A stretch of 64,000 bases of DNA from Lachnospira sp. GTDB taxonomy: Bacteria; Bacillota; Clostridia; Lachnospirales; Lachnospiraceae. Under the pieces are notes generated by a model. That model made no database searches. It was not told where the DNA came from and saw only the letters and a list, made by a program, of their open reading frames with translations. A program made the position numbers and the translations under genes. Below are positions 14-37,152 of the stretch, one piece after another. Each line of letters begins with the position of its first letter. The stretch's first letter is position 1. Location of the stretch: assembly GCA_017621205.1 (NCBI GenBank), contig JAGATQ010000051.1:1-64000 (forward strand), given 5' to 3'.

Positions 14-1087
14 ATGAAAAGCAAGAAACGCCCCTCTAAGTTGCCCGAAGAATGGGAAGTGATACCCGACACCCATGAGGGGATAGTCACGCAGGAGGAA
101 TTTGACACCGTACAACAGCTTATGACGAGCCGCAGGCGGGAGCAGAACGCAGGGGGATTTGAGAATATCTTTTCGGGCGTTATCAAATGTGCGGACTGCG
201 GCTATGCAATGCGGGCGGCGAGTGCCAACAGGAGGAAACGCCCCGACATCATCGACTGCGTACAATATACCTGCAATAATTATGGCAGATATGGCAATGT
301 TATGTGTACCGCACATAGCATTGAAGCGAGGGATTTATTCAACGCTGTCCTTGCCGACATCAACCGATTTGCGGATATGGCGGTCAATGATGAAAAGGCG
401 GTAAGGGCGATTGAAAAGCGGCTCACGGAAACAGACCAGAGCAGGGCAAGGGCACTGGAAAAGGAGCAGAGAAAGCTAAACAAACGCCTTGCAGAACTGG
501 ACAGGCTGTTTTCCTCACTCTATGAAGATAAGGTGATGGAGCGTATTACGGAGCGGAATTTTGAGATGATGTCGGGGAAGTACCAGAAAGAACAGCTTGA
601 AATCGAAGCAAGATTGAGGGAGGTAACGGAAACGCTCAACGACAGCTATGAGAAGTCGCAGGGTGTCCGTGATTTCCTCTCCCTAATCCGTAATTACCAA
701 GGCTTAAAGGAACTGGACGCAACCATCATAAACGCACTCATAGACAAGATACTTGTTTCGGAACGTGAGAAACTTACAGACGGAACGGTAAGACAGGAAA
801 TCAAGATTTATTATAAATTCATCGGCTTTGTCGGTGAATTACATATCACGCCAACCAAGCGGTGGACGGCGTTAAAGCCTAAGAATTGTACGGTGTGCGG
901 TGTTGAATATGTTCCCCGCTCTGCAATATCAAAGTATTGCCCAGAGTGCAGAAAAAGGATAAGAAAGGTTCAAGGAACGGAAACGAAACGCAGGAGCAGG
1001 GAGCGAAACAGACAGGCATGTATTGAACTGTCCGCAAAAAATGACCGACTGATGTGGACCACCACGAACCAAAGCCAGCACATGTAA
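14..1087 (+). CDS. Large serine recombinase, C-terminal portion. The 5' end is truncated by the window edge.
   Basis: The translation shows the end of a recombinase domain, a zinc ribbon (CADCGY...CVQYTCNNYGRYGNVMC), a long coiled-coil and a second C-terminal Cys4 ribbon (CTVCG...CPEC). This is typical large serine recombinase architecture. The ORF runs to window position 14 without an upstream stop. Confidence 0.8.
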   Translation: MKSKKRPSKLPEEWEVIPDTHEGIVTQEEFDTVQQLMTSRRREQNAGGFENIFSGVIKCADCGYAMRAASANRRKRPDIIDCVQYTCNNYGRYGNVMCTAHSIEARDLFNAVLADINRFADMAVNDEKAVRAIEKRLTETDQSRARALEKEQRKLNKRLAELDRLFSSLYEDKVMERITERNFEMMSGKYQKEQLEIEARLREVTETLNDSYEKSQGVRDFLSLIRNYQGLKELDATIINALIDKILVSEREKLTDGTVRQEIKIYYKFIGFVGELHITPTKRWTALKPKNCTVCGVEYVPRSAISKYCPECRKRIRKVQGTETKRRSRERNRQACIELSAKNDRLMWTTTNQSQHM

Positions 1088-3280: not shown

Positions 3281-4402
3281 CTAACCCATCAACCGGGAAA
3301 GCTGTTCTACCAAATCACCATTACCGGATACCGAGATTTCTCCTACCTTTCCACAGATTTTCTCTAAGTATTCCAGCTTCTTTAATTTGTACAGTGTCTC
3401 ATTTTCGTCCATTAGCTTTGCTGTATTTAACAATGACCTTGTGGATGCCACCTCCTCCCGGCGCTCAATTACATTTGCCTGTGCCCTCTTCTCTGCGACC
3501 AACACCGTATTCATGATATCCCTAATTTCTCCCGGCAAGATAATATCCTTGATTCCCGCCGTAGAAAATTCCACGAAATACTGTGCTTCCTCCTTCTTCA
3601 ACCGTGCCGAAATCAACCCGGAAAGCTCAACCTTTTTCTCAAGAATCTCATCTAAACGATAATTGCCAACCAATTCACGGATAATAAGCTGTGCATACGA
3701 ATACAACTGCTTTGGCAAATTATTCCTCTTCAGTACGACACTCTGGGCATCCACTACCCGATAGCTGCAAACTACATTCAGACGGATGCCAATCTTATCT
3801 TTTGTCAATATCTCCTGACCTAAAATATCCAGTTCCTGCCATTTCTGGTCTATGATAGAATAGGTAATTTCCGTATTGTAATTCCAAAAATAGTACACAC
3901 CGGAAGTCAGTGTTTTTACAATTCTCTGATTGTAGCACACCAATGCCACCTGTCCTTCTAAGACAGGTACCTTAGTATAGTACTTAGTTGGCAGAACAGA
4001 CAACATTTTTTTGGTAATCTCTTTCCCCATTTCCTCTGCTTCCATTGAAACCAGTCTGACCTTTGTCTTTTCAAATACGTTCCAAAAAACATATTCATTT
4101 CTTGTGGTACATCCCCTTAGGACACCATCTACATAAATAAAACCAATATATCCATCTGGTATCTGATACCGTACGGTAGCCTCCAGAAAATTCTTGTCCT
4201 TTGCTAAAATTTCATACGGTACATCTATGTATTCCACTTCTCCAAGCATTTCCTCCGTGACAACCTCATATCCCAGCAATTTGGAAAAATGATACTCCCC
4301 GGCAGAAAGCATTTTTACAAAACGTCCCTTTTTCAAAACAAATGCTGCTTCATTATCTCTGATATTATATTTCATCCTTCTCTCTCCTTTCCATAGTTCC
4401 AT
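3281..4402 (-). CDS. SPFH/band-7 (stomatin/prohibitin-like) domain protein.
   Basis: The C-terminal half contains the characteristic SPFH segment, ...IKDIILPGEIRDIMNTVLVAEKRAQANVIERREEVASTRS..., with a coiled-coil tail. No N-terminal transmembrane segment is evident. Confidence 0.7.
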   Translation of the reverse strand: MELWKGERRMKYNIRDNEAAFVLKKGRFVKMLSAGEYHFSKLLGYEVVTEEMLGEVEYIDVPYEILAKDKNFLEATVRYQIPDGYIGFIYVDGVLRGCTTRNEYVFWNVFEKTKVRLVSMEAEEMGKEITKKMLSVLPTKYYTKVPVLEGQVALVCYNQRIVKTLTSGVYYFWNYNTEITYSIIDQKWQELDILGQEILTKDKIGIRLNVVCSYRVVDAQSVVLKRNNLPKQLYSYAQLIIRELVGNYRLDEILEKKVELSGLISARLKKEEAQYFVEFSTAGIKDIILPGEIRDIMNTVLVAEKRAQANVIERREEVASTRSLLNTAKLMDENETLYKLKKLEYLEKICGKVGEISVSGNGDLVEQLSRLMG

Positions 4403-4760
4403 TTTAAATCAGATAATTGAGAATCGCATCATCGCCATCCTTCTATCTGTTATTTGTAAGTTGATTTCATATCCTCTACCTTTTCTTCTTGCTTCATAAG
4501 CGGAGCTCCGTTAAGCATTGCTTTGTCTGTTCTGGTTCACAGCTTACAGTCACAGGAAGTCAAACAGACCTTCCGTTCCTTCCCCTGCTTTCCAAAAGGC
4601 AACGCAATACGGTATCCCGTCACTGCTGGCTTATCAGGCAATTGCATCCTCCAAAAAGGCAGCCTCCACTGGCAGTGCCAGCAAAGTATACCTTTTCGGT
4701 GCTGAAGAAAAGGTAGGTGACATGGTTTCATAGAATTGCTTAACAGGCAATTCACCTACT

Positions 4761-4856
4761 TGGTTTGGGCTTGATGGATTCGAACCATCTTAATACCGAC
4801 TTGCACTCTACCATTGAGCTACAGATTTGCATCTGGCCGGATTTGAACCGGCAAAT
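4761..4856 (-). ncRNA. tRNA-like element that is not a canonical cloverleaf. It is a candidate YrlA-type bacterial Y RNA, or a tRNA remnant.
   Basis: The minus strand reads ...ccGGTTCAAATCCgg ccAGATgcaaATCTg TAGCTCAATGGTAGAGT gcaagtcggtattaa GATGGTTCGAATCCATC aagccc. This gives a near-consensus D-arm and T-arm (GGTTCGAATCC) plus a second T-arm-like hairpin. No acceptor stem or anticodon stem can be paired. It lies directly downstream of rtcB on the same strand. Confidence 0.35.
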
Positions 4857-5014
4857 TACAAGTTTTTTGTACCATTTCAGATTAATCCTCTGAATCTATG
4901 GTGAAAGAACTGTACGATATACCGACAACGGCACGCCGCTGGCATCATGGAGCACAGGGGTACTTTAACATACCACTTGCATACTCTCATACAGTACCAT
5001 TCCTTCCTAAATTA

Positions 5015-6244
5015 TTATCCCTTCAGTACGCCAACCGTCTTCAGCTTGCGAATCGGCGTAACCAAATCCATCTGCTGTGCCATAACCTCATCGATATCCT
5101 TATAGGCAAACCGGCACTCCTCTGCCACATCATTTTTTCTGGCTTTACCGAGAATGACTCCCTGCTCCTTTAAGTCCACCATAACCTGCTCCGTAGTAAA
5201 GGCTGCCATTGCGCCGCTTCTGGAATATGCCCGCCCGGCTCCATGGGAGGAGGTACAGAAGCTCTCCTTATTCCCCTTACCTTCTACGACATAGCTATAG
5301 GAACCCATAGCCCCCGGTATCACCGCTAACTCTCCCTCACGGACACGGGTTGCTCCTTTGCGGTGAACCCAGACATTTTCATTGTAATGATTCTCCAACG
5401 CCGCATAATTGTGGTGACAGTTAATCTGCTCCGAAAATTCTACCCGTATATCCGTATGCTTTTCGATGGTTTCCTGTACTGCGAGGCAGGAAATTTCCAT
5501 CATCCGCTCCCGGTTCTCGTAAGCATAGTCAAGAGCCAGATTCATCCAGTTTATGTACTGTTTTCCCTGCTCTGTATCCACCGGCAAAAATGCCAGCTTT
5601 GCTTCATCCGGCACTACGCTGTAATACCGTCTGTTCCACTCCCTCGCCTGATTATGGAAATAATCACAGATTGCCTTTCCCAGGTGGCGGCTGCCGGAAT
5701 GAATCATAATACATAAATAGCCCTCTTCATCCTCCTGCAGCTCCACGAAGTGATTGCCGCCTCCTAAAGTACCTACCTGATAAAACCCATCCCCAATCAA
5801 TGGCAGCAACTCCTCATTTGCCTGATACTTTTCCAGCTCACCCTGCGCTCTGTTAAGTACTGAGGATTCCTGTGGCGTCTTGTAGCGTTTCACTCCCACT
5901 GGAATATTTCGCATAAGATTTCCTACAATCGTCTGAATGATTGATCCATTTCCCGTCTGGATATCCCGGATATCAGCCACCTTCACATTAGTAGCAGTAA
6001 ATACCATACCGCATCCAATATCCACACCTACCGCATTGGGAATGACTACTCCCTTGGTTGCAATTACTCCCCCAATCGGCATCCCTTTGCCTGTATGAGT
6101 ATCCGGCATCAGGCACACCCATTTATGTACGAAGGGCAGGTTGGCAAGATTATACGCTTGTTCTAAACAACTCTCTTCAATTGCCTCACGGTCTCTTAAC
6201 CAGATTTTTAACGGATATTTTGTGTTCTCATTTAATACAAACAT
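5015..6244 (-). CDS. rtcB: RtcB family RNA 3'-phosphate/2',3'-cyclic phosphate--5'-OH ligase.
   Basis: Full-length match to the RtcB fold is recognisable by eye: MPDTHTGKGMPIGGV, GGGNHFVELQ, SHGAGR metal/GTP-binding motifs. Length is 409 aa. Confidence 0.9.
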   Translation of the reverse strand: MFVLNENTKYPLKIWLRDREAIEESCLEQAYNLANLPFVHKWVCLMPDTHTGKGMPIGGVIATKGVVIPNAVGVDIGCGMVFTATNVKVADIRDIQTGNGSIIQTIVGNLMRNIPVGVKRYKTPQESSVLNRAQGELEKYQANEELLPLIGDGFYQVGTLGGGNHFVELQEDEEGYLCIMIHSGSRHLGKAICDYFHNQAREWNRRYYSVVPDEAKLAFLPVDTEQGKQYINWMNLALDYAYENRERMMEISCLAVQETIEKHTDIRVEFSEQINCHHNYAALENHYNENVWVHRKGATRVREGELAVIPGAMGSYSYVVEGKGNKESFCTSSHGAGRAYSRSGAMAAFTTEQVMVDLKEQGVILGKARKNDVAEECRFAYKDIDEVMAQQMDLVTPIRKLKTVGVLKG

Positions 6245-6440
6245 CTTACTTCACCTCTCCTTTTTGATTACAAATATGTTTTGCTTTGCTATGAGCCAAT
6301 CATACAATAACTGGAAAAAATTATCATTTCAAAAAAGTTGCGAGATGAAATTATAAATCAATTATAACAAAAGAACACCATAAACGGATAAAAATCGGGG
6401 AGTGAGAAGGAGAAAATGGTAAAAAAATGGGAAGAAACGG

Positions 6441-6469
6441 TTGACAACAAAAAACAACAAAGATATACT
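6441..6469 (+). promoter_or_regulatory. Sigma-A-type promoter for the HTH-Uma2 operon. It lies in the divergent region shared with rtcB.
   Basis: TTGACA, then 17 nt, then TATACT. A strong RBS (AAGGAGG) sits 7 nt before the ATG at 6504. Confidence 0.4.
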
Positions 6470-6503
6470 AACAATAACATCATAAAAACAAGGAGGGGAT
6501 TCT

Positions 6504-7274
6504 ATGACCATTGAACAGATGCGACAGCAAAAACAAGAAAAAGGATACACTTATGCACAGATAGCCGAATTATCCGGCGTCCCATTAGGCACTGTCCAGA
6601 AGATCTTTTCAGGAGAAACAACCAATCCACGCTATGATACATTACAAGCTTTGGAGAATTTATTTTCACAAAGACCTGTACTAGCAGAAGAATCCCTCTA
6701 TACCATTCATCAGCAAGGCAGCTACACTCTTGAAGATTATTATGCAATGCCGGACGACCGCAGGGTAGAATTAATCGACGGATACTTTTATGACATGGCT
6801 TCACCCACTTTTTTACACCAGAGAATTGCCGGAGAAATCTATCGTCAGATTGCCAATTATATTATGGAACATGACGGTGACTGCCAACCGTTGCTATCTC
6901 CCATAGACATTCAGTTAGATTGCGATACAAGAACCATGGTACAGCCGGATATTGCCATATTATGTCACAATGACAGAGTCCGTCATTGGGGAATCTATGG
7001 TGCACCGGATTTTATATTAGAGGTCATATCCCCTTCCACAAGAAAGATGGATTATACCAAAAAGCTAGCGAAATACGAAGCAGCCGGGGTAAGGGAATAT
7101 TGGATATTAGACCCCTATCAGAAACGACTATTAGTTTACTTTTTTGAAAATGAAAGCTACCCCTTTATCTGTGGACTGGATACTCCCGTTCCGGTTAATA
7201 TTTATGACGGAGCATTAAAGCTTCAATTTGAACACATCCTGAACTGGATTGAACACGAGGTCATGGAAGAATAA
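6504..7274 (+). CDS. Fusion protein: N-terminal XRE-family helix-turn-helix, C-terminal Uma2 (DUF820) PD-(D/E)XK nuclease-like domain.
   Basis: N-terminus: YTYAQIAELSGVPLGTVQKIFSGE (HTH_3-like). C-terminus: RVELIDGYFYDMASPT...QPDIAILC...PDFILEVISPSTRKMDYTKKLAKYEAAGVREYWILDP. The D / E-V-x-S-P-S / K / Y-W-I-x-D-P motifs are typical of the Uma2 family. Confidence 0.75.
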   Translation: MTIEQMRQQKQEKGYTYAQIAELSGVPLGTVQKIFSGETTNPRYDTLQALENLFSQRPVLAEESLYTIHQQGSYTLEDYYAMPDDRRVELIDGYFYDMASPTFLHQRIAGEIYRQIANYIMEHDGDCQPLLSPIDIQLDCDTRTMVQPDIAILCHNDRVRHWGIYGAPDFILEVISPSTRKMDYTKKLAKYEAAGVREYWILDPYQKRLLVYFFENESYPFICGLDTPVPVNIYDGALKLQFEHILNWIEHEVMEE

Positions 7275-7291
7275 ACAGATTAAGGAGGTTA

Positions 7292-8599
7292 ATGATGTCC
7301 GAATTCCAAGAGCTAATTAAAAACTTTAGCAAATGCCGGGATTATGTCCGGGATTTCTTTGTGTACGGTTTTAAAAGCCGGGCAGATTTCTCTGCAAAGA
7401 GCGGACGCACCTATGACGATGAGCGAAGAAGAATCGAAAGCTGGCTAGGTGAGTATGTCAAAGCTGATTACGGAGCCGAATCTGATGCAGCATCTGGCAA
7501 CAAGGGGCGCTCCAAAAACATTTCCCTGCAAATGGACAGCAATCTGTTGGAAACCAATCCACTATACCGGGTATGGAAGACGAAAAGCTTTACAGACAAC
7601 GATATTATGCTGCATTTCTTTTTACTGGACATTTTAGACGACGGTGATCCCCTATCCATTACCGAATTAGCCGATGAAATAACCGCCCGCTATGAAGTGG
7701 TTTTGGATTCCCAGATGATTCGCCGCAAATGCAACGAGTATGTAAAGGAAGGTTTATTACAAACACAAAAATCCGGCAAAACGACGCTTTATAGCAGAAA
7801 TATAACATGGCAGGAATTGACTACTGATACGGCAGGCAGTGTTTTAGATGCTTTTGAATGTTCCTGCTCTGATAATCTGTTAGATGCCCTTCGGTTCTAC
7901 CAGCTTAGCGCCCCCTTCGGCATAATAGGGAGTACTCTTTTAGACAATCAGAAGACGGTCAATGCTCATTTCCGTATTAAACACAGCTTTTTCGTTCATA
8001 CACTAGAGGACGAAATAGTATTAGAGCTCCTGCAAGCAATGAGGAAAAAATGTAGTGTTCTGGCCTTTTGCCAAAGCAACAAAAATACAGACATGCGAAG
8101 AGAATTCGGGGTTCCCCTTCAATTCTTTGTAAGCACCCGCACCGGCAGGCGTTATATCTGCATGTATCGCACCACTACCAAACGTTTTCTATGCCTGCGC
8201 CTGGATCAGATAAAAAAGGTAGAGCAAAAAGAGCAGTTCCCAGAATATAATCAGATTTACGAGAAGCTGCTAAAGAACCGGGGACAGGCATGGGGTGTCT
8301 CCTTCCAAGGCTCTAACCAATCGAGAGAACAGAGACTTGTTCTAACGCTACATATCGACGAAGCTAAGGAATCGTATATTCTGGAGCGGCTTAGGCGGGA
8401 AGGTAAGGGGGGCTGTATTAGCCATATAGGAAACAACACCTACACCTATGAAACCGAGGTCTTTGATATACAGGAAATGGCACCCTGGCTTCGTACCTTT
8501 ATTGGAAGGATTGTATCAGTAGAAACTACGAACCGGCAATTCTCCTCCCGTTTCCAGTCGGATTTAGAAGCACTATACCAGATGTATGAAATTGATTGA
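7292..8599 (+). CDS. WYL-domain-like transcriptional regulator: wHTH, degenerate WYL core, WCX-like C-terminus. First gene of a pair.
   Basis: Winged HTH-like segment LSITELADEITARYEVVLDSQMIRRKCNEYVKEGLL. A WYL-like core RRYICMY...KRFLCLRLDQIKKVE. A C-terminal WCX-like beta segment ending FDIQEMAPWLRTFIGRIVSVE. The gene is tightly linked (18-bp gap) to the upstream Uma2 gene. Confidence 0.45.
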   Translation: MMSEFQELIKNFSKCRDYVRDFFVYGFKSRADFSAKSGRTYDDERRRIESWLGEYVKADYGAESDAASGNKGRSKNISLQMDSNLLETNPLYRVWKTKSFTDNDIMLHFFLLDILDDGDPLSITELADEITARYEVVLDSQMIRRKCNEYVKEGLLQTQKSGKTTLYSRNITWQELTTDTAGSVLDAFECSCSDNLLDALRFYQLSAPFGIIGSTLLDNQKTVNAHFRIKHSFFVHTLEDEIVLELLQAMRKKCSVLAFCQSNKNTDMRREFGVPLQFFVSTRTGRRYICMYRTTTKRFLCLRLDQIKKVEQKEQFPEYNQIYEKLLKNRGQAWGVSFQGSNQSREQRLVLTLHIDEAKESYILERLRREGKGGCISHIGNNTYTYETEVFDIQEMAPWLRTFIGRIVSVETTNRQFSSRFQSDLEALYQMYEID

Positions 8600-8620
8600 A
8601 ACCAGAAGGGAGTAACGTAT

Positions 8621-9604
8621 ATGACACTTTTTTCAGAAATCAATAATTGTTATTATCAGATTGTATATGATTTAATTACCCACACCTCCCCTCTGACAAG
8701 AGAAGATATTGCAAATACAATCAACACCTTGGGGTACGAGGAAAGTATTCTATATCTGCTCCCAAAGCTGATTGAAGATTCCGACACCTCATGGAATCTA
8801 TTCACCATGGAGGATACTGTCTATCAGCCTAAAGTACATGCTGCGCTTACAATTCCCTTAAGCGAGCTGCAAAAGTCATGGCTCAAGGCGTTACTTTTGG
8901 ATTCCCGCATCCGCTTGTTTTTATCAGAGGAACAGCTCCATCTGCTAGAGGGGCATTTAAAGGAATGTGAGCCTCTCTTTTACCCTCAGGATTTCTATTA
9001 TTATGATGCCTTTACTGATGGAGATTCCTTTGAACATCCAGCCTATCGGGAGAATTTCAGAATCCTTCTGTCTGCCATTAAGAAGCAGCAGTATGTGAAC
9101 CTCTCCTTTCAATCTCACCACAACCACCGGATTCATCACTGGTTTCTTCCCTGTAAGCTGGAATATTCCATAAAAAATAACCGTTTCCGTTTACTGGCAT
9201 TGGAGGTCCGAAAGCACAGCCGTTACCGTTTTTTTACTATTAACCTCTCCCGTATAACGGAGATTATCCCCCTAGAGCAGTATGCCAAGTATACACCGGA
9301 CATCAACCGTTACATAAAACGTGGCTATCATAAGGAGCCTGTTACCCTCCTTATCCGCAATGAGAGAAATGCCTTAGAGCGAACAATGCTGCAATTTGCT
9401 AATTATGAGAAAAATACAACCAGAATTGGAGAGAATCTATATCAATGTGAGATTTATTATAATAAGAGCAATGAGACGGAGCTGTTAATTGAGGTCTTAT
9501 CCTTTGGACCAATGGTAAAGGTGATTGGCAATGCGGGGTTTTTAAAGCAGCTGCGGGAGCGGTTAAAGAGGCAGAAGGAGATGGAGGGCAATTTCATTGA
9601 TTGA
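8621..9604 (+). CDS. WYL-domain-like transcriptional regulator. Second gene of the pair.
   Basis: wHTH-like LTREDIANTINTLGYEE. WYL-like HHWFLPCKLEYS...RFRLLALEV...RFFTINLSRITEI. The C-terminus ELLIEVLSFGPMVKVIGNAGFLKQLRERL is typical of the WCX end of WYL regulators. Confidence 0.45.
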   Translation: MTLFSEINNCYYQIVYDLITHTSPLTREDIANTINTLGYEESILYLLPKLIEDSDTSWNLFTMEDTVYQPKVHAALTIPLSELQKSWLKALLLDSRIRLFLSEEQLHLLEGHLKECEPLFYPQDFYYYDAFTDGDSFEHPAYRENFRILLSAIKKQQYVNLSFQSHHNHRIHHWFLPCKLEYSIKNNRFRLLALEVRKHSRYRFFTINLSRITEIIPLEQYAKYTPDINRYIKRGYHKEPVTLLIRNERNALERTMLQFANYEKNTTRIGENLYQCEIYYNKSNETELLIEVLSFGPMVKVIGNAGFLKQLRERLKRQKEMEGNFID

Positions 9605-36448: not shown

Positions 36449-36690
36449 GCATGGAAGGGAGACACACTATATTATTTGTTCCGTTGTTCGGGAATAAGGA
36501 TTTCTAGATATTCCCATATTGGTATCAATGTGCTGACGCAACCGACGCACATTCGCCATTCATGGCTCAGAGTGCGTCTTTTCGGGACATCCAGTCCCGA
36601 AATTGCTAGTTATCTAATGGGAATATCAAGAAATACTAATTCCCTGCCAAAGTCACAGATAATATAGTGTGTCCCCCTTCCATGCCCCTC
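36449..36690. repeat. Structured MITE-like repeat, copy 1. Roughly 190-bp core with roughly 35-bp imperfect terminal inverted repeats, nested inside a perfect 28-bp flanking inverted repeat.
   Basis: Flanks: ggcatggaagggagacacactatattat ... ataatatagtgtgtcccccttccatgcc. Core TIR: gggaata-agga-tttct-agatattccc / gggaatatcaagaaatactaattccc. The core contains an internal hairpin tttcgggacatccagtcccgaaa. Confidence 0.5.
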
Positions 36691-36933: not shown

Positions 36934-37152
36934 CCGGAATGTACTATGAATTTGTGACTTTGGAAGGGAATTAGCATTTCTTGATATTCCCTTTAACACC
37001 CAGCAATTTCGGGGCAAGGATGTCCCGAAAAGACGCCATCGAGCCAAGATGGCGAGTTGGCGTCGGTTGCGTCAACAACTCATTACTACACGGGAATATC
37101 CTAGAAATGCTTATTCCCGAACAACGGAACAAATCCATAGTACATTCCGGTT
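36934..37152. repeat. Structured MITE-like repeat, copy 2. Inverted relative to copy 1, about 85% identical, flanked by a different 15-bp inverted repeat.
   Basis: The reverse complement of 36950-37140 aligns with copy 1 across about 190 bp. Flanks: ccggaatgtactatg ... catagtacattccgg. Confidence 0.5.

Follow-up and report, generated by a model that had tools for sequence, protein, structure and literature searches.

A divergent WYL regulator pair and an RtcB/Band-7 RNA-repair unit with a permuted tRNA-like RNA in Lachnospira

Organisation of the locus

The stretch of DNA analysed here, referred to as the window, comprises 64,000 nucleotides (nt) from Lachnospira sp. (contig JAGATQ010000051.1 of assembly GCA_017621205.1, positions 1-64,000 of the forward strand). 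Its subject is a locus built around rtcB, the gene of an RNA ligase. On the minus strand, rtcB (5015-6244) is followed by a non-coding stretch of 610 nt and then by a gene for a Band-7/SPFH protein (3281-4402). Divergent from rtcB, on the plus strand, lie three genes: a fusion of an XRE helix-turn-helix (HTH) with a Uma2 domain (6504-7274), and two genes termed P3 (7292-8599) and P4 (8621-9604). The gaps in this operon are 17 nt between HTH-Uma2 and P3 and 21 nt between P3 and P4.

The locus is probably best explained as a Lachnospiraceae version of an RtcB RNA-repair system, consisting of two conserved halves, one effector and one control, together with one passenger. A note made beforehand from the letters of the DNA (the original prediction) had described rtcB, a tRNA-like element and a divergent, tightly packed operon of an HTH-Uma2 gene and two further genes, all of which exist where it had placed them. 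The Band-7 gene, a 5′ RNA domain (4903-5005) and a promoter box (6323-6343) are additions to that description.

Effector genes and their synteny with the regulator pair

The rtcB gene encodes an RNA 3′-phosphate/5′-OH ligase of 409 amino acids (aa). The protein scores 372 bits against Pfam RtcB (PF01139), for which the cut-off is 27, and covers profile positions 1-426 of 426. The Band-7/SPFH protein (373 aa; Pfam Band_7, E 2.3e-26) is encoded by the last gene of the rtcB-RNA-Band-7 unit. It has no obvious transmembrane segment in its translation and is predicted to be cytoplasmic. Domains of RtcA or of the sigma-54 activator RtcR (CARF-AAA+) were not found in any of the 18 open reading frames (ORFs) scanned between positions 14 and 22516, and are also absent among the called genes of the related loci examined. 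There was no match to a TROVE (Ro/Rsr) protein among the scanned neighbour ORFs of the window. The domain scan of the flanking ORFs therefore agrees with the proposed RNA-repair island, from which rtcA and RtcR are missing. The locus does not have the composition of the Escherichia coli/Salmonella type of Rtc system, in which rtcA and RtcR stand alongside rtcB. It does have that of a Band-7-associated RtcB system, with rtcB, a tRNA-like non-coding RNA (ncRNA) and a Band-7/SPFH protein in one unit.

Conservation was followed in 80 species-representative loci from Lachnospiraceae or related Clostridia, which were collected with a P4 profile and in which genes were mapped by BLAST. P3 stands next to P4 in 78 of the 80, the two remaining loci being without P3. 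The median gap between the two genes is 20 nt, and 15 of the 80 pairs overlap. An RNA-repair unit lies divergently upstream of the pair in 69 of the 80 loci, a very strongly conserved synteny of the kind that the original prediction had proposed as a check. These 69 units comprise rtcB with Band-7 (29), rtcB alone (13), DUF2828/DUF7788 (vWA) with rtcB (12), DUF2828 alone (13) and Band-7 without rtcB (2). Among the other loci, four contain co-directional repair genes which have their own box, and five have too little flank to judge. The system is real and conserved.

In loci of the DUF2828 type, the space from the box to the gene contains one or two tRNA-like RNAs, for example at L004 6349-6461 (-) and at L007 6102-6211 (-) and 6286-6398 (-). 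These have an acceptor-like stem of at least 10 bp, with an insert of about 55 nt in place of the anticodon arm. The DUF2828/DUF7788 protein has no sequence relative in the PDB. Its helical N-terminal part followed by a vWA domain suggests a Ro-like nature. In some relatives, an rtcB2-prfH (RF-1 domain) ribosome-repair operon without a box of its own stands beside the DUF2828-rtcB operon (L004 1375-3101, plus strand).

The structured RNA between rtcB and Band-7

The RNA on the minus strand between rtcB and Band-7 spans approximately 230 nt, in which a three-way-junction domain is joined by a linker to a circularly permuted tRNA module of YrlA type, and a second T-arm follows. The 5′ domain (4903-5005) begins 10-18 nt past the rtcB stop codon and was delimited from alignments and a covariance model, R2. 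It is formed by a closing stem (P1), a long hairpin (P2) and a further hairpin (P3 of the RNA), with the conserved strands GGGUAU / CUGCCC / GGUGCC / GGUAUNCC. Compensatory changes are seen in 15 of the 20 modelled pairs, and the P1 stem is recovered in single-sequence folds of 23 species. R2 scores 54.3 bits in the window and has 34 matches, all of which are in Band-7 loci. No Rfam family matches this domain. The hairpin of the linker (4871-4902), taken from minimum free energy folds, is variable; in relatives the region contains one or two hairpins whose sequences are unrelated.

The tRNA-like module, including the second T-arm, occupies 4762-4869 (-) and is defined by a local match to the Rfam YrlA family, by the covariance model R1 and by covariation. 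Its closing stem, the equivalent of an anticodon stem, pairs CUUG (4859-4862) with CAAG (4800-4803). Within it lie the first T-arm, GCCGG-UUCAAAU-CCGGC (4836-4852), and a closed acceptor-like hairpin with a GNRA cap, CAGAU-GCAA-AUCUG (4822-4835). These are followed, after a separating UA, by the D-arm, GCUC-AAUGGUA-GAGU (4805-4819). The second T-arm, GAUGG-UUCGAAU-CCAUC (4773-4789), is conserved. A tRNA-like element and a second T-arm-like hairpin downstream of rtcB on the same strand had thus been correctly recognised, while the accompanying statement that no acceptor or anticodon stem can be formed was wrong, as the hairpin at 4822-4835 and the closing stem demonstrate.

At this element ARAGORN calls no tRNA, and Rfam gives nothing at gathering thresholds. 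A local search with Rfam YrlA (RF02553) yields a match at 4775-4882 (-) with 32.9 bits (E 3e-5), under the gathering score of 69. In this match the alignment is good over the T-arm, hairpin and D-arm, and the outer stems of the Rfam model do not pair canonically in the sequence of the window. A relative, L001, reaches 40.6 bits, also below the gathering score. A partial match to the Rfam tRNA model takes in the D-arm and the second T-arm. The proposed YrlA identity therefore holds in part: the permuted-tRNA layout of YrlA is present, whereas the score falls short of the threshold and both the Ro-binding stem and an adjacent rsr gene are lacking.

The original prediction had allowed that the element might be missing in relatives. 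This was not seen, as R1, which scores 70.6 bits in the window, finds the module in the corresponding place in 29 related loci with 75-125 bits. The 30 matches of at least 70 bits are all located between rtcB and Band-7, and 28 of the 30 loci are species representatives of the Genome Taxonomy Database (GTDB). In an alignment of the module from 25 species, compensatory changes occur in 14 of the 21 pairs and in all five helices, with 97% of cells paired. The bases of the T- and D-loops which make tertiary contacts are invariant. None of 500 shuffles equalled the real alignment, and slid controls collapse. The scores in relatives, the compensatory pairs and the shuffle control together place the element beyond chance.

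The RNA is closely tied to Band-7. In each of the 30 species loci with the 5′ domain the Band-7 gene comes after the RNA, and all 30 Band-7 species loci have that domain, the two exceptions being cut off by the end of the locus. The 5′ domain is never found with DUF2828, and Band-7 and DUF2828 units are mutually exclusive. In two loci, L067 (Schaedlerella arabinosiphila DSM 106076; 5724-7660, minus strand) and L082 (a metagenome-assembled genome), the box is followed by the RNA and Band-7 with no rtcB, and the RNA and Band-7 can for this reason be regarded as a unit of their own. By co-occurrence, the probable protein partner of the RNA is Band-7.

The spacer between the second T-arm and Band-7 contains two conserved sequence blocks within 4500-4630 (-), identified from an alignment of 20 loci. 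The first has the approximate form GCC.G....GGGAUACCGUA (4608-4630) and the second is CUGCUNAAY....UUYCCGC (4500-4518). Neither a conserved small ORF nor a consensus structure was found for the spacer in this alignment. Long-range pairing of the downstream GGAUACCGCA block with the 5′ domain was considered and dropped; the window sequence does not covary.

The promoter box

The promoter of the rtcB unit (6299-6343, minus strand), recognised by an exact match and a promoter scan, consists of the box TCGCAACTTTTTTGAAATGAT (6323-6343), an 18-nt spacer and the -10 element TATGAT (6299-6304). The general formula ahead of repair units is TCGCAACTTTTTTGAAATGAT-N18-TAtnnT. The box in the window is exact, with 0 matches expected by chance. 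In a set of 93 loci it is found in 88, where it precedes each rtcB, DUF2828 or RNA unit, and it always points toward the repair unit. Loci with several repair units (L011, L017, L020, L041 and L047) have two or three copies. Across 81 distinct sequences, 15 of the 21 positions are at least 98% conserved, and an invariant TA...T -10 stands exactly 18 nt after the box. The start of P3 is within about 30-250 nt of the box in most loci. The box is absent from 80 unrelated gut-metagenome loci and has 0 matches in 2.9 million viral contigs.

The box is non-palindromic and spans about -51 to -31, so that it covers the -35 position. We infer that it is the operator of the P3/P4 pair, and that regulation through it is more likely to be activation than repression. 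Activation is favoured because ATGATA, the hexamer which the box places at the -35 position, matches sigma-70 poorly, and the good TTGAAA sits 22 nt from the -10 in the window and most loci, features which are typical of activator-dependent promoters.

The WYL regulator pair

P3 (435 aa; 7292-8599, plus strand) and P4 (327 aa; 8621-9604, plus strand) match the PADLOC WYL profile with E 2.5e-6 and 6.4e-10, respectively. Neither has a match to Pfam WYL (PF13280), even at E 10, and NCBIfam and PHROGs gave nothing useful. Sequence searches of the PDB returned a weak match to PafBC alone (E 0.27). Homologues carry the name ‘WYL domain-containing protein [Lachnospiraceae bacterium]’, and a few have a precomputed PF13280 match. 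As these sequence searches gave little, fold comparison was needed.

Structures predicted with AlphaFold2 were compared by Foldseek. For both proteins there are full-length matches to RNA-polymerase-bound PafBC, DriD, CapW, BrxR and WYL1 (probability 1.00, E 1e-10 to 1e-5). P3 matches DriD and PafBC with E 2.5e-10 to 2e-9, and for P4 the first match is PafBC (9fnd_Y, E 4.6e-10), followed by DriD, CapW, BrxR and WYL1. PafBC is a mycobacterial activator of the DNA-damage response, and both PafBC and DriD, the latter from Caulobacter, are activated by single-stranded DNA (ssDNA).

P3 is laid out as a conserved N-terminal extension (residues 1-100), a winged HTH (wHTH; about 102-169), a WYL domain (about 238-315) and a WCX domain (about 347-431). 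The corresponding parts of P4 are the wHTH (9-70), WYL (about 157-221) and WCX (about 241-324). The predicted local distance difference test (pLDDT) is 83 for P4 and 63 overall for P3, being higher in the wHTH, WYL and WCX domains of the latter. The extension of P3 (window 7292-7591) is the most conserved part of this protein, and many of its residues are invariant; P4 lacks it, and its pLDDT is 30-50. A weak alignment of P3 with P4 covers WYL and WCX.

Judged by their predicted folds, P3 and P4 are sequence-divergent wHTH-WYL-WCX regulators. The domain content assigned to them by the original prediction is thus confirmed by PADLOC and Foldseek, though Pfam is silent. By analogy with PafBC, the two are proposed to be paralogous, tandem-encoded subunits of a heterodimer, to which the non-palindromic form of the box would be suited.

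The HTH-Uma2 insertion

The first gene of the plus-strand operon (6504-7274) encodes an XRE-HTH fused to a Uma2 domain, as had been stated. The protein scores 110.3 bits against Pfam Uma2 (PF05685), above the cut-off of 27, and 34.4 bits against HTH_3, above 23. It also matches the PADLOC family PDC-S03 (E 6e-41).

The gene lies in a lineage-specific insertion (6353-7294, plus strand) which replaces the native leader of P3. This was delimited by blastn against L090, a locus whose P4 is 89% identical. The flanks are 91% and 88% identical, and between them the window has about 940 nt and L090 has 123 nt. In L090 the box leads straight to P3, with no Uma2 gene. The insertion brings its own near-consensus promoter, TTGACA-17-TATACT (6441-6469, from the promoter scan). 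Contigs with an identical HTH-Uma2 protein all share the arrangement of the window. The Uma2 gene is missing from the slot between the box and P3 in 78 of the 80 species loci. In 80 metagenomic loci with HTH-Uma2 proteins that are 61-70% identical, no P3, P4, RtcB, Band-7, DUF2828 or box was found within 5 kb.

What fills the slot differs among other species: unrelated genes for membrane proteins or transporters in some, and in others a Clostridiales-1 RNA (RF01699), the latter at L001 6145-6300 (+) with 126 bits and L007 6565-6723 (+) with 105 bits. Clostridiales-1 RNA was considered as a general leader or core part and rejected; the window does not have it, and nhmmer detects it in three lineages only.

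From this distribution, HTH-Uma2 appears to be a recent insertion and a passenger outside the conserved system. Its inclusion in the proposed module is not upheld, given its absence from L090 and 78 of the 80 loci and the lack of system neighbours around its homologues elsewhere. The Uma2 nuclease, though eye-catching, should stay out of models of the system.

Neighbouring genes and other RNAs

Two ORFs upstream of the locus were scanned. They encode a serine recombinase fragment (Recombinase, Zn_ribbon_recom and DUF4368 domains; 14-1087, plus strand) and an unknown protein of 683 aa. Strain variants differ near 14-1087, with a neighbouring gene of 683 aa or 732 aa and with or without the recombinase. 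The ten ORFs scanned downstream, over twelve kilobases, include an APS kinase-methyltransferase and polysaccharide-synthesis genes. Elsewhere in the window there are two full-length TwoAYGGAY RNAs (RF01731), at 36483-36651 (-) with 110.6 bits and 36959-37125 (+) with 126.1 bits. They are divergent and about 300 nt apart, and no other sequence in the window reaches the gathering threshold of an Rfam family.

Alternative explanations

Several points weigh against the explanation preferred here. P3/P4 are taken by inference to bind the box, to pair as a heterodimer and to respond to a ligand, and the co-occurrence of box and regulator is partly built in because P4 was the bait in collecting the loci. 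Between P3 and P4, hhalign gives a weak match (E 0.0056, probability 6.5%). Confidence in the P3 model is low overall (pLDDT 63), and the most conserved part of the protein, residues 1-100, is unmodelled. The sign of regulation can be either, since WYL regulators can be repressors, as in BrxR and CapW. It is thus conceivable, if rather unlikely, that P3/P4 form a repressor of this type which blocks the promoter from the box and is released by a ligand. The fold matches include BrxR and CapW, the overlap of the box with the -35 position is also where a repressor would work, and divergent back-to-back promoters, as in the leader of L090, favour autorepression. The best fold matches are nevertheless the activators PafBC and DriD, and the poor ATGATA hexamer with a displaced TTGAAA is more typical of a promoter that depends on an activator. 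A decidedly improbable variant has the box read by an alternative sigma factor or a regulator encoded elsewhere, with P3/P4 controlling something else or only themselves. It draws on the link between box and pair being a predicted one, on the lack of a palindrome and on the P4-based selection, which deprives the co-occurrence of independence as a test. A heterodimer would, on the other hand, suit a non-palindromic site, the -10 is an invariant TAnnnT of sigma-70 type at fixed spacing, and the box is in most loci near the start of P3 and, where there are several repair units, marks each of them.

The composition of the system can also be drawn differently. The original prediction joined HTH-Uma2, the WYL pair, RtcB and the Y-like RNA into one ligand-sensing module with Uma2 as its DNA-binding effector. 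In its favour, the Uma2 gene is 17 nt from P3 on the same strand and its product matches a defence-candidate family of PADLOC. A further point, which also counts against the explanation preferred here, is that a distant species has an HTH-less Uma2 in the same box-P3 slot (L012 114-656, plus strand; 43% identical to the nuclease domain), from which Uma2 may have a loose accessory link to the system. A single module is improbable all the same, and is largely refuted by the comparison of loci, when Uma2 is absent from 78 of the 80 loci and from L090, when the insertion of about 940 bp brings its own promoter, when the slot is filled by unrelated genes or Clostridiales-1 RNA in other species, and when the 80 loci with 61-70% identical homologues lack WYL, RtcB, Band-7 and box nearby. 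As for the RNA, it might be taken as a decayed tRNA gene or the functionless remnant of an integration site, given the serine recombinase fragment 4 kb away and the silence of ARAGORN. Against this, 30 loci keep the permuted order in the same place and each helix shows compensatory changes, the loop bases for tertiary contacts are invariant, and a second conserved domain and Band-7 accompany the element. The covariation refutes the decayed-tRNA reading, the probability of which is close to nil.

Proposed mechanism and significance

In the proposed mechanism, the effector unit would be expressed as one transcript from the conserved promoter through rtcB, the RNA of about 230 nt and Band-7, as sequence and synteny suggest. 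P3/P4 would act as the control unit, a PafBC-like heterodimer that binds TCGCAACTTTTTTGAAATGAT, covering the -35 position 18 nt upstream of the TAnnnT -10. By analogy with PafBC, DriD and RtcR, the WYL domains may respond to a signal of nucleic-acid damage, probably RNA fragments, by switching the unit on. The RNA and Band-7, following Burroughs & Aravind in so far as they are quoted by others, could together make up a ribonucleoprotein that serves as scaffold or decoy and assists RtcB in resealing cleaved tRNA or rRNA. The HTH-Uma2 insertion in the P3 leader stands outside this mechanism; as a side effect, the strong promoter that it brings probably drives P3/P4 in this species.

The repair substrates of bacterial RtcB and the role of Y-like tRNA mimics are long-standing questions. 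To our knowledge, RtcR in enterobacteria is the only well-studied control circuit of RtcB, and the WYL sensor family is so far known for the sensing of ssDNA. The locus would offer a second, independent RtcB control circuit in the abundant gut Lachnospiraceae. A bolder proposal, tentative and possible rather than likely, is that P3/P4 are the first WYL sensor dedicated to RNA damage. The PafBC-like heterodimer would bind cleaved RNA in place of ssDNA, and through the 21-nt box would activate a Lachnospiraceae-wide regulon of alternative RNA-repair ribonucleoproteins (Band-7 with a three-domain Y-like RNA, or DUF2828-vWA with extended-stem tRNA mimics), functionally replacing RtcR. The handle for such work consists of a sharply defined candidate operator, a predicted sensor of two subunits and a cleanly delimited RNA with a strict Band-7 partner. 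With these, the WYL ligand in an RNA context, the regulon marked by the box and the RNA-Band-7 complex become directly testable.

Comparison with known systems

In some bacteria, RtcB is found beside Band-7 and a tRNA-like ncRNA (‘b7a-tRNA’), a prediction of Burroughs & Aravind (2016) as quoted in bioRxiv 10.1101/312249. The same quotation has YrlA ‘occasionally’ adjacent to a Band-7 protein. The present locus resembles that system in having rtcB by Band-7 with a tRNA-like RNA between them, an arrangement that matches the quoted adjacency of YrlA and Band-7. It differs in its RNA, which is not an authentic-looking tRNA but a permuted module of YrlA type with a three-way junction and a second T-arm. 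The effector half is of a known, predicted kind, because the combination of RtcB, Band-7 and tRNA-like RNA was, as quoted, predicted in 2016. No paper linking the WYL pair or its operator to rtcB was found in the literature searched, in which the 2016 study is represented by its quotation. The claim of the original prediction that this is ‘not a described system’ therefore fails for the effector half and stands, within that literature, for control by the WYL pair and the operator. The WYL-pair control, the box and the three-part Band-7-associated RNA appear, to the same extent, to be undescribed.

RtcR senses cleaved tRNAs, and the rsr-yrlBA-rtcBA operon of Salmonella is RtcR-controlled (PMC7790460). 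That operon is a stress-inducible RtcB operon, and both it and the present locus have a tRNA-mimicking RNA and a dedicated ligand-sensing regulator alongside, the sensing being predicted in Lachnospira. In contrast to Salmonella, there is no RtcA, Rsr/Ro or sigma-54/CARF RtcR here. A WYL pair with a -10 of sigma-70 type is present instead, and the scaffold is Band-7.

The crystal structure of YrlA (PDB 6CU1) was described by its authors as a ‘circularly permuted tRNA’. The RNA described here shares with YrlA (RF02553) the order of anticodon-like stem, T stem-loop, closed acceptor stem-loop and D stem-loop, as well as the invariant T- and D-loop bases. Unlike YrlA, it is without the long 5′/3′ Ro-binding stem and has no rsr nearby, and a further 5′ domain and a second T-arm are present in it.

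The HTH-Uma2 protein clearly belongs to the Uma2 family (PF05685)/PDC-S03, from which it departs by its fusion to an XRE HTH and its position as an inserted passenger. P3 and P4 share with PafBC and DriD the wHTH-WYL-WCX architecture (Foldseek E about 1e-10), and the tandem paralogous subunits recall pafB-pafC. A further likeness to PafBC is the conserved asymmetric box next to a TAnnnT -10, which replaces a good -35. Identity to PafBC and DriD is 11-17%, and P3 has an extra conserved N-terminal region of 100 residues. The target of those regulators is a DNA-repair regulon, whereas the predicted target here is an RNA-repair regulon and the putative ligand an RNA.

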